Origin: Nitrospirales bacterium
Lineage (GTDB): Bacteria; Nitrospirota; Nitrospiria; Nitrospirales; UBA8639
NCBI GenBank assembly: GCA_963555755.3
Contig: OY820905.2
Span: forward strand, 4,545,745-4,609,744
Length of the DNA stretch: 64,000 nucleotides
Direction: 5' to 3'
This document shows positions 8,893-33,614 of the stretch, one piece after another; the stretch's first letter is position 1; every line of letters starts with the position of its first letter. A program made the translations under genes and the position numbers. The notes beneath the pieces are model-generated. The model was not told the DNA's origin. It ran no database searches and saw nothing but the letters and a program-made list of their open reading frames with translations.

Positions 8893-8984
8893 TGGCGGAG
8901 AGGGCGGGATTTGAACCCGCGGTAGGGGGTAAACCCTACGGCGGTTTAGCAAACCGCTGCCTTCGGCCGCTCGGCCACCTCTCC
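8893..8984 (-). tRNA. tRNA-Ser(GCT)
   Basis: Minus strand reads GGAGAGGTGGCCGAGCGGCCGAAGGCA GCGGT-TTGCTAA-ACCGC, long variable arm, GGTTCAAATCCC, CTCTCCGCCA with encoded CCA. Confidence 0.97.
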
Positions 8985-23218: not shown

Positions 23219-23476
23219 CACGTATAAAATATTTGTGACTACTCAGGCGGATAGACTGAAGGCTTTTAGGGGCAATCATGCGTGATCTTTCAACACTTCT
23301 GGCATTTTGACCGTTAGCCTTCAGCCTACCGCCTAAATACCTGACCAGTTGCAAATATTTGAGAGCTGGAGGTCGAGTGTGGTTGTAAAGACAAAGCACG
23401 ACTTGGCCAATGGGAACGGATTTGATTGCTGATGAGAAAGAATAGATGTTTAATGTTTCTTAAGATGGCGTTCTAG

Positions 23477-23881
23477 ATGAAAATGTGGGTGGGAGTTGTC
23501 ATTTTTGTGCTGGGTGTGGGCGCTGGATTGAGCGGAGTGCAATTTATTCCGGCCTCCGTGTCACTGTATTTGCCTGCTGTGCTTCAAGCTCAGAACGAAA
23601 TTGTGAAGGGGATCGTTGTTCGAAAGCACCAGGAGTCTGAACGGTTGCTCCTAACGGTGTCTACTCCTCGGGGAGCCTTGTTAGCCACGTTTACCCAGCA
23701 AATCCCAGAAATTGATTTATTGGTTGAGGAAGGGGATGAGGTGACGTTGGGACTGACACAGTATGCTCCGTTTGTTCATGATCCCACGATCAAAGGTGTG
23801 ATGAAGCCCGATCATCTCCCAGCCCAACCAACAGCCGACCCGGAACCCGACAACGGGAATCTACCAATCTTGGAATCGTAA
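23477..23881 (+). CDS. Hypothetical membrane-anchored protein
   Basis: 134-aa ORF with an N-terminal hydrophobic segment. Confidence 0.65.
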   Translation: MKMWVGVVIFVLGVGAGLSGVQFIPASVSLYLPAVLQAQNEIVKGIVVRKHQESERLLLTVSTPRGALLATFTQQIPEIDLLVEEGDEVTLGLTQYAPFVHDPTIKGVMKPDHLPAQPTADPEPDNGNLPILES

Positions 23882-23896
23882 TCCGAACCCGTCTTA

Positions 23897-24537
23897 GGAC
23901 CTGAGAGAAAAGAACTTGGCCATCTCGCATCCAATCTTCGGGCCATCATTGAACCTAGAAGCAGCAGTTGGATCACAAAAGTCCGCGCAAGCTCTTGGCG
24001 CACCTAGGAGCCTGTCCAAGATTAGACAGATCTACTGCGGGTGCGCTGGGTTTGGCCAGATCTTTCGATCCTTTTCGGGGAATGTTGAAAAAGGCCCCCA
24101 GCTGCGTTCTCGGGCTTTTGGCGTGCTCACGTACTCCGTGTACGCTCCGCGCGCCAAAACCCCTGCGGCCTTGCTGGATGGCCTTTTTGAACATTTCCCG
24201 TTTTCGTTAAATAGTCACCACTATTCGCCTCACACGATCGAAACATCTGACTCAACCCAGCACCCCCTCGTCACGATCGCTAATCTCGGACAGGCTCCTC
24301 GCAAAATACAAAAATGTCTCATCACCACCGAGATGACCACGACTTTTTGTATTGCACCATGCACACCAATATCTTACACGTCTTTTTTGCGCCCAACTGC
24401 CGTTTCTAGGTTGAACGGGCCTCAATCGAAACACCCTCACCATCGCTGTGCTATGCCTCGGGTTTTCCTCAATCGTTCCGTCCCAATCCGACCTAAATCT
24501 TGGCGCGATATTGTCCAAGTTATTTTCTCTCAGGTCC
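23897..24537. mobile_element. Four-level nested MITE: E > A (23953-24411) > C (24008-24297) > F (24076-24200)
   Basis: Each level has its own TIRs and duplication: TTA (E), TGA (A), CTAG/CTCG (C), TTTT (F). Removing inner elements restores the unnested forms seen elsewhere in the window. Confidence 0.88.
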
Positions 24538-24550
24538 TTATCTGATCCTC

Positions 24551-26761
24551 ATGTCGCTGAACCTCAAACATGAAAAAACCCTTCAGGCCCTCGCGCGTGC
24601 GCATGGTATCGAGTTGAGGTATCGTGATGGGACGGGCATGGTTCGAAGGGTTTCGACTTCGACCGTTCATGCTCTATTGCATGCGATGGGAGTGAACGTG
24701 GCAACGTACGAGGAGGTGCATCAATCTTTGAAGGCCGTTCGCCTTCAACCTTGGACGAGGGTGCTCGACGAGGTGTTTGTGGTCTGGCAAGGGAACACTT
24801 CCTCACTGTGGCAATTAACGATTCCCACGGCTGCCACTTTGCTTCCTCAACTGGCAGTGACTTGGCAGTTGGAAAATGAGCGAGGGCATCAGGTCGGCGA
24901 TCAGGGTTCCGGAGAACGCCTTTCGCTGATTGCCTCACGAACGATTAATGGAAGGGCGTGCTGTCGGTTGGGCGTGCCGTTTCCCGAAAACCTGCCTCTT
25001 GGCTATTATCGTTTAACGGTCACGGCATCGTGGCCCTCTCAGACCGTCTGTGGAGAGGCGTTGGTCATTGTCGCACCCAAGCAGTGTTACCTGCCGGACC
25101 AGCCCAATCGGTCTTGGGGGGTGACGGTTCAATTGTATGGGTTATCGAGCGCTCGAAACTGGGGTATTGGAGATTTTAAAGATCTTTCGATGTTGGCCAC
25201 GTGGGCAGGTAGCCACCTTGGTGCTTCGACGATTGGCATCAATCCACTCCATGCCCTGTCAGCCAAATCGATCAGCCCGTATTCTCCGTCGAGCCGGTTA
25301 TTCTTTAACCCGCTGTATCTGGATGTTGAGGCGATTCCCGAATTTCAGAACGCCCTCGCTTTACAAGAGCAGGTCAAAAGCGAGGCCTTTCAAGATCGCT
25401 TGAAAGTGCTGAGGGACCGCCGAACGGTGGATTATGATGAAGTCCGCGCGGTGAAATTTCCTCTCTTGGAATCCTTGTATGCGGTGTTTTGCCAACACCA
25501 TGTGGCCACGGGATCCGAACGGGCGCACGCGTTTGATCAATATGTTCAACAGCAAGGTACAGTGTTGCGCCGGTTCGCCGTATTTCATGTTTTACAGGAA
25601 CGGTATCGCCATGCGTCGTGGTGGCAATGGCCCGTCGAATATCAGGATTCAACGTCGGTTGCTGTTGAGGATTTTGCCAACCAGCATCTGGATCGGCTGC
25701 GGTTTTATCAATATTTGCAATGGCAGTGCGAGGATCAACTCGGTGAGTTAAACTCAACCGCAAAACAGGCGGGATTGTCTTTAGGGTTGTATCACGACCT
25801 GGCAGTTGGAATCGTTGCCGATGGGGCTGATGCCTGGATTTTTCAAGATCAGCTTGCGCGTGGGGTCTCGATTGGGGCCCCTCCGGATCTGTTTAATTTG
25901 TCGGGTCAAAATTGGAACTTACAACCACCGATCCCGACTCGACTCCGATCGCAGGCGTATCATTTTCTCAGGGAAACTTTTCGTCACAACATGCAGTATG
26001 GTGGCATGTTACGAATTGATCATGCGCTGAGTCTCTTTCGGTTATATTGGATTCCCGAGGGCAAGTCGGCTAGTGAGGGCGCCTATGTTCGGTATCCGAC
26101 TGACGAGTTGTTGGCGGTTCTTGCCTTGGAAAGCGTCCGGCATCAGGTGATGGTCGTTGGAGAAGATTTAGGAACTGTGACCCCTGGGATTCGACGAAAA
26201 TTCGCTCAGGCAGGCTTATTGTCCTATCGTTTATTAATGTTTGAAAAACATTCTGGCAGAGGATATCGAACCCCAAAAACGTTTCCGGAACAAGCGTTAG
26301 CTTCGGTCAATACGCATGACCTTCCCACCCTACGCGGATTTTGGGTTGGGCGAGATATTGAGACGAAGGAGCAAATTGGGTTATACCCTTCTGCATCGCA
26401 TATGGACCAGGATCGAGTCACTCGCACCCAGGATCGGCAAGCCTTACTGCGGGCTTTGGGGAGGGAACGGCTGTTGCCAACGGGTACGCCATCTCAAGCG
26501 GAAGAATTGCCTCAATGGTCGGATGAATTGTGCCGGGCGATCTATGCGTATGTAGCCCGGACCCCTTGCCGGGTGATGGCGACCTCTCTTGAGGATTTAT
26601 TGGGAGAGGTGGATACGCCCAATGTGCCCGGTGCGCCGGAGGGTGCGTATCCTGTGTGGCAACGAAAGTTGAGCCGACCATTTGAAGAATGGCAACACGA
26701 TCCGGATCTTCTCGATTTTGCAGCCGCCGTGCATCGCGAGCGTGCGGCTTCTTCGGTGTAA
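24551..26761 (+). CDS. malQ: 4-alpha-glucanotransferase (GH77 amylomaltase)
   Basis: WGIGDF, SPYSPSSR, DLAVG, LRIDH, GEDLG, THDLPT. Confidence 0.93.
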   Translation: MSLNLKHEKTLQALARAHGIELRYRDGTGMVRRVSTSTVHALLHAMGVNVATYEEVHQSLKAVRLQPWTRVLDEVFVVWQGNTSSLWQLTIPTAATLLPQLAVTWQLENERGHQVGDQGSGERLSLIASRTINGRACCRLGVPFPENLPLGYYRLTVTASWPSQTVCGEALVIVAPKQCYLPDQPNRSWGVTVQLYGLSSARNWGIGDFKDLSMLATWAGSHLGASTIGINPLHALSAKSISPYSPSSRLFFNPLYLDVEAIPEFQNALALQEQVKSEAFQDRLKVLRDRRTVDYDEVRAVKFPLLESLYAVFCQHHVATGSERAHAFDQYVQQQGTVLRRFAVFHVLQERYRHASWWQWPVEYQDSTSVAVEDFANQHLDRLRFYQYLQWQCEDQLGELNSTAKQAGLSLGLYHDLAVGIVADGADAWIFQDQLARGVSIGAPPDLFNLSGQNWNLQPPIPTRLRSQAYHFLRETFRHNMQYGGMLRIDHALSLFRLYWIPEGKSASEGAYVRYPTDELLAVLALESVRHQVMVVGEDLGTVTPGIRRKFAQAGLLSYRLLMFEKHSGRGYRTPKTFPEQALASVNTHDLPTLRGFWVGRDIETKEQIGLYPSASHMDQDRVTRTQDRQALLRALGRERLLPTGTPSQAEELPQWSDELCRAIYAYVARTPCRVMATSLEDLLGEVDTPNVPGAPEGAYPVWQRKLSRPFEEWQHDPDLLDFAAAVHRERAASSV

Positions 26762-32526: not shown

Positions 32527-32667
32527 GGGCACCTCTAAAAACCGTCCTTTTCCGTGATGGCGGCGTCAGCCGCGTGCTCAAATCCTCATGTATTCGCCCA
32601 TACACTCCGGTTTTCCGCGCGCAGCTTCCTTGCCCTCACAAAAAATGCCGGGTTTTTAGAGGTGCCC
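32527..32667. mobile_element. MITE G, 141 bp
   Basis: TIR GGGCACCTCTAAAAA with 4-bp duplication TTCA; second copy at 43522. Confidence 0.85.
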
Positions 32668-32840
32668 TTCAGTCACGAGATTGTTCCCTGTGGAATACTG
32701 AGAGTATAGTGGGTCCAGTGAAGTCAGCGACCACCTTTCCCCCTGACACGTGAAGGTCTTTGGAAATTGTCACCAATTCGCAGAAATTTTGAATTATTCA
32801 ACAGACTTCTCAGGGATTTTTCTGGGCAGGCAAGGGTTGA

Positions 32841-33614
32841 ACCTAGAAACCGCAGTTGGATCACAAAAGTCCGCGCAAGCTCTTAGGACCTGCGAGAAAA
32901 TCACTTGATCAATCTCGCATCCAATCTTCGGGCCATCTTTGAACGGGCCTCAATCGAAAAACCCTCACCATAGCTGTGCTATGCCTCGAGTGTGTCTCAA
33001 TCGTTCCGTCCAAATCCGACCCCAATCTTGGCGCCATATTGATCAAGTTATTTTCTCGCAGGTCCTTAGGGTCCGTCACGAAATAACCGGGACAATTGGC
33101 CGAGACGATTTTGGAGCGAGCCAAGGAGCGAAGAGCGCGCATACCGGGAGTATGGAAGCGATGAGCGACGCCGGCGGAGCCCAAAAGCGTCCGGCCCTCC
33201 GGGGAGGCCCATCTTTGGCCCGGGGCGGCGTGGCTCCTCGGTCACAGAGCCCCGCTAGGCTCCCTCGTCGTGCCTTGCCCCGATCACAAATCTTGGCCTC
33301 CCAATTGTCCCGGTTATTTCGTGACGGACCCTGAGCGCATCTGGCACAATACAAAAATGTCTCATCACCACGGAGGGCTCGCGCAAGAATAATTTCCCTT
33401 GTTTTGGTGCTGAGGCGCCTGTCTGGCAAGGCGCGAGGACGGCGCATACTCCTCGTATGGAAAGGACGAGCAACGCCGCCAGACAGGATGGATCGACGCC
33501 CAAACATGGGAAGTTATTTTTGCGCGAGCCCTAAGGTGACCACGACTTTTTGTATTTCACCATGCACACCAATATCTTACACGTCTTTTTTGCGCCCACC
33601 TGCCGTTTCTAGGT
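32841..33614. mobile_element. Composite MITE A containing E (32886-33065), D (33069-33331) and B (33375-33531)
   Basis: A TIRs with TGA duplication; same E-D tandem as at 30042-30487. Confidence 0.88.

Follow-up and report, generated by a model that had tools for sequence, protein, structure and literature searches.

A four-layer stack of short repeats upstream of malQ in a Nitrospirales bacterium and its probable assembly by copying between repeat copies

The stack of four nested repeats in front of malQ was probably assembled in place, after a few founder insertions, by homology-templated copying between host copies of cassettes that each consist of a passenger and its junctions. Five observations are the basis of this reading: the junctions are fixed, the cargo falls into lineages, the hosts are random copies, orthologous copies differ in place, and junction bases are of the donor type. 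Positions given below without a contig name refer to the window, the whole stretch of 64,000 nucleotides that was analysed (G000:C1:4545745-4609744); G000 is the genome that contains it, and the other G numbers are genomes compared with it.

Results

The stack in front of malQ

The stack occupies positions 23894-24540 and has the layout TTA-E[TTGAA-A[CTAG-C[TTTTCG-F-TTTTCG]-CTCG]-TTGAA]-TTA. Its parts and neighbours are listed in order of position.

23477..23881, + strand: upstream ORF of 134 aa, no family hit
23894..23896, + strand: left copy of the TTA target of E; G006 lacks the insert at the orthologous site and reads TTA once
23897..24537, + strand: MITE E, outermost layer; 179 bp without cargo, 112 full copies, TNA duplication
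23949-53 and 24411-15: TTGAA copies flanking A (direct reading)
23954..24410, + strand: MITE A at E position 53-57; 163 bp, 117 copies, TTNAA duplication
24004-07 (CTAG) and 24298-301 (CTCG): flanks of C (direct reading)
24008..24297, + strand: MITE C at A position 51-54; 160 bp, 80 copies
24076..24200 (start 24076/78), + strand: hairpin repeat F at C position 65-70; about 123 bp, 152 copies
24538..24540, + strand: TTA target of E, right copy
24551..26761, + strand: malQ, 4-alpha-glucanotransferase, intact, 736 aa; TIGR00217 430.8 bits (cut-off 205.65)

As an earlier note on this DNA had described, the stack is 641 bp long, it ends 13 bp before the malQ ATG (24551), and its excision leaves a gap of 25 bp. 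The four-deep order was also confirmed, with four pairs of inverted arms (27 bp in E, 50 bp in A, 20 bp in C), but the claim that every layer has a duplication needs correction, since that of C is imperfect (CTAG/CTCG) and that of F is specific to one junction. The junction of F reads TTTT(CG)/TTTT(CG), with a boundary that is ambiguous by 2 bp. Contigs from sequencing run X1, which may be the source sample, agree with the stack without a single difference (23300-23978, 23976-24095, 24109-24286 and 24383-25300). An Rfam scan of the stack gave no match; the only Rfam matches in the window are the 3' domain of a group II intron (RF00029, 41111-41189) and a tRNA (8896-8984).

In G006, G002 and G003, the orthologue of the upstream ORF abuts or overlaps the malQ start. 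The ORF in G000 ends with a TAA stop 12 bp before the E target site, and the stack together with this new stop codon separates a gene pair that is coupled in the relatives. In the 616 codons compared with G005, malQ differs by 25 synonymous and 27 non-synonymous changes, which suggests that purifying selection on it has continued. As regards the possible effect on malQ expression raised by the earlier note, no promoter-like site was found within the stack, and the promoter and terminator scan stayed at chance level. Contigs of RNA run X12, which carry neither strand nor level and may be DNA, cover 23559-23942 (upstream ORF into E) and 24871-25144 (malQ), with none across the stack, and were not taken as evidence. 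Two candidate intermediate alleles that join malQ to E, L020 in G005 and L141 (the single metagenome match), were rejected because they switch to other loci inside the repeat.

Both nesting orders and the target sites

A second copy of A in the window holds E together with two further families.

32842..33613, + strand: second A copy, flanked by TTGAA/TTGAA; E and G in tandem at position 42-44, H at position 82-84
32886..33065, + strand: E of the A-resident lineage, junction TTA/TTA
33069..33331, + strand: MITE G, 263 bp; 29 of 38 copies at the A42 site; junction TTA/TGA
33375..33531, + strand: MITE H in the centre of A, 157 bp, 166 copies; junction GGA/TAA

Both nesting orders are real, A in E before malQ and E in A at 32886. 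The accompanying proposal, that each family carries a target site for the other, holds for E, which offers TTGAA to A and keeps this canonical site in 91 of 93 empty copies, but not for A. Empty A copies at the site of E and G mostly read CTTGG (65/83) and only once CTTAG; at the site of C they read CTGG in 70 of 105 cases and CTAG in three, and at the site of H mostly CCGAG. Filled A copies have TNA junctions at the E/G and H sites and CTAG-like ones at the C site. Therefore, of the two directions of targeting, only that of A into E has a target that is maintained. A has entered the TTGAA of E independently at least twice, and one of these copies lies in the opposite orientation, in an E that lacks it in both G005 and G006. 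Recursive nesting was seen as well, as A[E[A],H,G] and E[A[E,G]] at G000:C1:1104003 and 1354721, and as an E-A-E-A-E chain in L051 of G005 that may be an assembly path.

Genome-wide nesting and target density

A nesting graph was built by iterative excision for ten families from full-length copies, so that partial hosts were missed; it comprises 825 such copies across the genome, and 149 of these are nested. Three stacks are four deep, all E>A>C>F, against 1.17 expected from independent per-family occupancy (P=0.115), and their number is unremarkable given that occupancy. The 149 nested copies fall into 18 classes defined by inner family, host, site and orientation. Seven of them account for 136 copies: F at C66 (34), G at A42 (29), H at A82 (28), A at E54 (18, plus one reversed), C at A52 (12), E at A42 (10) and C at A42 (5). 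Orientation is fixed in 34/34 F in C, 29/29 G in A, 28/28 H at A82, 12/12 C at A52, 10/10 E in A and 18/19 A in E. If the copies were independent, the orientation bias would reach p=1e-10, which argues that nested copies are not independent.

With crude gene calls, nesting by copy counts exceeds the level set by target density for C (22/80 vs 4%) and G (29/38 vs 13%) and marginally for A (20/117 vs 10%, p=0.017) and H (p=0.056), but not for E (12/112). After collapse to junction classes, which undercount founders, and with the same gene calls, it amounts to 1-10% per family, near or below the target-density expectation except for C (9% vs 4%). Independent A-into-E events, estimated from junction and haplotype, number about 4-7 against 3.4 expected from TTNAA density. 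The families were active in the same period, as the earlier note had supposed: for each of E, A, C, H and D, some insertions are found in G000 but not in its close relative G005, or the reverse.

That note had proposed a network of mutual safe havens, the families preserving target sites for one another; nesting would then be enriched through repeated independent insertion and purifying selection elsewhere. The copy-level excess for C and G, the TTGAA kept in E, the several independent A insertions at E54 and one site occupied by E in G000 and by H in G005 agree with this. However, once copies are collapsed to junction classes, nesting comes close to what target density predicts, the outcome by which this explanation would be refuted; empty A lacks canonical targets, the orientation bias is extreme, the A-into-E events fit their expectation, and the cargo descends from few lineages. 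We regard this explanation as very unlikely.

Families with TNA targets also form head-to-tail trains with one shared TNA, 21 adjacent pairs being found among E, G, H and J; an example is L001:800-1820 (G000:C1:1753100-1754120), and the third four-deep stack lies within an H-E-J-E train. Of the seven J copies, six occupy the same site in a further repeated element that appears to be coding (G000:C1 498367, 757659, 762701, 2665140, 2674627 and 4372339), again one junction in many hosts.

Cargo lineages and host copies

Cargo at a given junction is marked by diagnostic alleles. The E allele 8C is found in 18 of 18 copies at A42 against 9/94 elsewhere, F allele 45G in 34/34 at C66 against 2/118, C allele 135C in 14 of 15 at A52 against 2/65, and a diagnostic C allele in 7/7 at A42 against 10/73. 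H at A82 comprises about three lineages, each tied to its own junction, one of them linked to a GGA/AGA left junction (17/20 vs 1/14, p=1e-5). The middle base of the G junction varies (TCA, TTA, TGA, TAA), a variation that counts against the reading by copying.

Hosts behave differently from cargo. In A, the presence of E, G, H or C as cargo is not associated with any variant beyond the target bases, and the only host associations are C 45G and E 52A, which adjoins the site; this donor-type 52A is present in 6 of 19 filled E copies and in none of 93 empty ones. Diversity is 0.022-0.059 for cargo and 0.059-0.125 for hosts, and cargo is 1.2-3 times less diverse. In a permutation test against random subsets, cargo was tighter in all seven classes (p<=0.001 in six, 0.014 for G) and hosts in none of the seven (p 0.12-0.999). 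Among 37 near-identical A pairs with cargo, one member was empty in 31, the cargo differed in three and was of the same class in three. The A copy at C1:1665418 carries E, G and H although, apart from the target bases, it does not differ from three empty A copies. One young A lineage comprises six empty members and four filled ones, each of the latter with a junction set of its own.

The four-deep stacks differ part by part: F is identical in two of the three, and E differs at 14-17 sites. The malQ stack agrees with assembly by copying: it combines an E with 52A, an A of the E-resident 8G group and a C of the A52 lineage. Its F is identical to that of a second stack, whose E differs from it at 14 sites and is a plain E in G005. 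A at E54 is a mixed case: the A copies there have several haplotypes, the E hosts have diverged and one copy is reversed, which indicates some fresh insertions.

These data bear on a second explanation, that the outer element jumps together with its cargo, the association of the two being obscured later by precise excision and by exchange of host arms. Fixed site and orientation would follow from it. In its favour are also the 28 top-level C[F] copies at unrelated loci, the same junctions in G005, G006 and G018 of another genus, one A pair with identical host, cargo and junctions, and one near-identical C[F] pair. But co-transposition predicts equal diversity of cargo and host arms, and the hosts found are random copies with more diversity than their cargo; near-identical hosts share cargo in only three of 37 pairs, and a 10-site haplotype of E cargo is kept despite 94 paralogues able to scramble it. 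Moreover, simple excision cannot yield TTG from TCA[G]TTA or delete 52A, changes that are described for individual loci below. Co-transposition as the sole process is largely refuted, and we consider it an unlikely account of the stacks.

Orthologous loci in relatives

Orthologous loci were compared with G005 (90 search loci and 10 contigs) and G006 (10 contigs and one locus); G005 is a fragmented assembly of 64% completeness, which under-samples long stacks and is biased to short inserts. By our own count, 28 host loci are shared with these two genomes. Eight have cargo in either genome, and seven of the eight differ: E[A[C[F],H]] vs E, E[A] vs E (twice), C[F] vs C, A[G,H] vs A, H vs H[C], and A vs A[C]. 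Shared rare variants beside the site anchor four of the seven, and the other three are anchored less well.

At C1:4437631, 13 host variants are common along the element, including between the two sites, and G and H are present only in G000. The junctions change from TTG to TCA[G]TTA and from AAA to TAA[H]TAA. G005 has 46G, which is in no G000 copy, and 49G, where G000 has the consensus beside G, so that gain is favoured at this locus. At C1:1396547, A is present together with 52A, and 49G is retained. The variants at these two loci limit the exchanged host sequence to about 3-20 bp per side. This pattern fits what homing-like copying into an empty allele with short co-conversion would leave. 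The genome comparison contains no conversion event observed as such, and at only about two loci is there support for one direction, gain or loss, over the other.

Where orthologous copies differ, the difference is a family-wide allele in 70 of 127 cases (20.9 expected). No decay of linkage with distance was seen in E, H and D, and sites close together gave a weak signal in A, C and F (p 0.004-0.03), so that part of the allele sharing could be due to recurrent mutation in hairpins. Loss of F at C1:650430 fits plain precise excision. At C1:3721953, one side of the duplication has the sequence of the empty site, the other the canonical one. G005, G006 and G018 have junctions at the same positions, which implies that the founders are old or were moved horizontally. 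At G000:C1:3934788, E in G000 corresponds to H at the same site in G005 (L138), and two further sites are likewise occupied by different families.

Target duplications and parents of the families

E, A and C are MITEs, with terminal inverted repeats, a length of 160-179 bp, no transposase and many copies (112, 117 and 80, respectively). F is a multi-copy hairpin repeat with inverted ends, for which classical MITE status is not shown: free F copies lack a duplication in 85 of 118 cases (shuffled null 96), with 2-bp repeats in 26 against 17. Exact target duplications were found for E in 62/100 copies (3 bp) and for A in 65/97 (5 bp), with empty sites in G005 and G006. For C, CTAG is the consensus on both sides, exact in only 19/58 copies and seen in one clean empty/filled CTAG pair; its two sides look nearly independent. 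Mismatched duplications occur in 38/100 E, 52/137 H, 39/58 C and 32/97 A, i.e., in 33-67% of free copies, and D is exact in 95/117. Hairpin symmetrisation accounts for only some of the mismatches (E 7/38, H 15/52, A 0/32, C 2/39). A palindromic or extended target preference of free copies did not rise above the null.

A third explanation is that young passenger lineages transposed repeatedly into the same sites in fixed orientation and brought junction bases along from the donor. The piggyBac-type overhang reaction offers an analogy for such donor-borne bases. Transposition of this kind could account for the low cargo diversity, the random hosts, the very short apparent tracts and the frequent mismatched duplications, including the half-canonical one at C1:3721953, and A did enter E54 in both orientations. 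But free copies lack an extended target that resembles the host sites, no filled A42 keeps the recipient TTG on either side, and the non-canonical GGA junction follows one H lineage across unrelated hosts. Transposases of at least three unrelated types would also have to share this odd behaviour, and that of A survives in G000 only as a broken fragment. We therefore judge it quite unlikely, somewhat more so than co-transposition, and return to copying between hosts as the preferred reading.

Parents with matching ends were found for two families. The ends of C match two IS1182 copies in G000 (C1:1335228-1336891 and near 2920459) with CTAG on both sides and a transposase that reaches 377 bits against profile NF033551 (cut-off 270); C derives from IS1182 of G000. 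The ends of A match over 18-21 bp those of L236 and L251 from two alphaproteobacterial genomes, elements of 1672 bp with TTGAA or TTTAA on both sides and a 516-aa ORF. Their transposases score 154 and 153 bits with NF033539, below the cut-off of 180, and 82 bits with PF13701, above that of 34.7, so that the putative parent of A is only IS1380-related and falls below the IS1380 family cut-off. G000 itself holds only an 88-residue broken fragment of a transposase related to that of A, and in Nitrospiraceae genomes A has matches at 90-97%. In many phyla, ends of the A type with TTNAA duplications also enclose unrelated interiors of 107-287 bp (L192-L298), among which 163 bp and about 234 bp recur; these are a MITE group of wide distribution that belongs to an IS1380-related element.

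No autonomous parent with matching ends was found for E, G and H in G000, other genomes, plasmids and viral contigs; TNA targets suggest IS5-type parents. A DUF4096 or DDE_5 transposase was absent in all five genomes searched, the plasmids gave no match for E or F, and no parent was found for F. Several candidates were rejected: an IS1634 between E ends proved to be inserted inside an E copy, an IS1595 between A ends is nested deeper, and matches to E ends in viral contigs and two distant genomes are due to chance. The first is a complete IS1634 in L013 (G000:C1:2549815-2551856), and the IS1595 lies within an F-bounded remnant next after the left arm of an A (L014). In 11 of the 28 F-bounded stretches listed, the F-type ends enclose a recombinase gene of the IS110 family (NF033542, 210 bits), for example at G000:C1 2334766-2336123 and 2405142-2406501 (L018, L002), which suggests that F is a landing site for IS110. 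By eye, D, G, H and F have different ends and similar central GTA/CATAC-loop-TAC/GTATG hairpin motifs (window 32527-32668, 33069-33331, 33375-33531 and 24120-24155).

Discussion

In the mechanism that we favour, each junction would have been founded by one or a few ordinary insertions, roughly at the rate that target density allows. The cargo would then have spread by non-reciprocal exchange (gene conversion) altering about 3-20 bp of host per side. The recombination machinery of the host would act, the trigger being, as a guess, either cleavage of the site by a transposase or invasion by a strand of another copy, and mismatch repair might restore more distant host bases, which is likewise a guess. 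Some transposition of whole composites, precise loss and fresh insertion, as of A into the TTGAA of E, would also contribute. The cargo encodes no nuclease. A point against this mechanism is that mutS1 is intact in G000, since MutS should suppress recombination between copies that are 5-10% apart.

In intron and intein homing and in gap repair after P-element excision, a filled allele is the template from which an empty one receives the insert at the same position, with short co-conversion; in the present bacterium, by contrast, the hosts would be dispersed paralogues, and no dedicated endonuclease was found. Ectopic recombination or gene conversion among Wolbachia IS copies was reportedly described by Cordaux in 2009. 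In the accessible parts of the literature compared (PMC4853749 among it), nested IS, gene conversion of IS and MITEs as IS targets are already known. Wolbachia has 18 IS split by nested IS (PMC3205602) and gene conversion within 23-bp TIRs (PMC3004938), and resembles G000 in nested bacterial elements and in conversion over very short homology. As far as the accessible text of these papers goes, however, nesting is counted there as one-off events and conversion alters point differences, whereas in G000 whole inserts of 120-620 bp appear to move with their junction bases.

Prokaryotic MITEs with a cognate IS, such as RUP with IS630-Spn1, Nezha, Chunjie, Correia and ERIC, are described in the portions available of PMC2229807, PMC3184786 and PMC10969869. 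The present families are like them in being short and non-coding, in their terminal inverted repeats, high copy number and empty sites in relatives, for E and A in a target duplication, and, for C and A, in a parent IS with matching ends. MITEs or REPs also serve as landing sites of IS110/IS1111, as QMITE2 in Coxiella (PMC10969869) and with ISPpu9 (PMC12288879). There, too, a repeat is reused at one position, but the insertions, as given in the accessible sections, are autonomous and targeted by a recombinase, whereas the passengers in G000 are non-coding, come from several families and enter hosts that, when empty, lack their target. A term search of the accessible text of PMC10969869, PMC3184786 and PMC11602168 did not find 'nested', nor was fixed-junction MITE-in-MITE cargo across many hosts found there. 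No description of whole nested cargo exchange between bacterial MITE copies was found in the literature searched, chiefly freely available papers.

More tentatively than assembly by copying as such, the families may form a homing-like network in which passengers and junctions are copied between dispersed hosts without a transposase of their own, about as often as a host copy acquires a point mutation; nested elements would then be hyperparasites on a distributed landing pad, building modular Russian-doll stacks. The order of nesting commonly serves to date transposon waves and to deduce target preference. Neither deduction holds if paralogous hosts exchange inserts by copying, and the number of copies is then no longer a count of transposition events. 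If this is true, non-autonomous elements could spread after loss of their transposase, as A, whose transposase is only a fragment in G000, and the stacks would be a natural many-locus record of short-homology recombination in a mutS-bearing bacterium.
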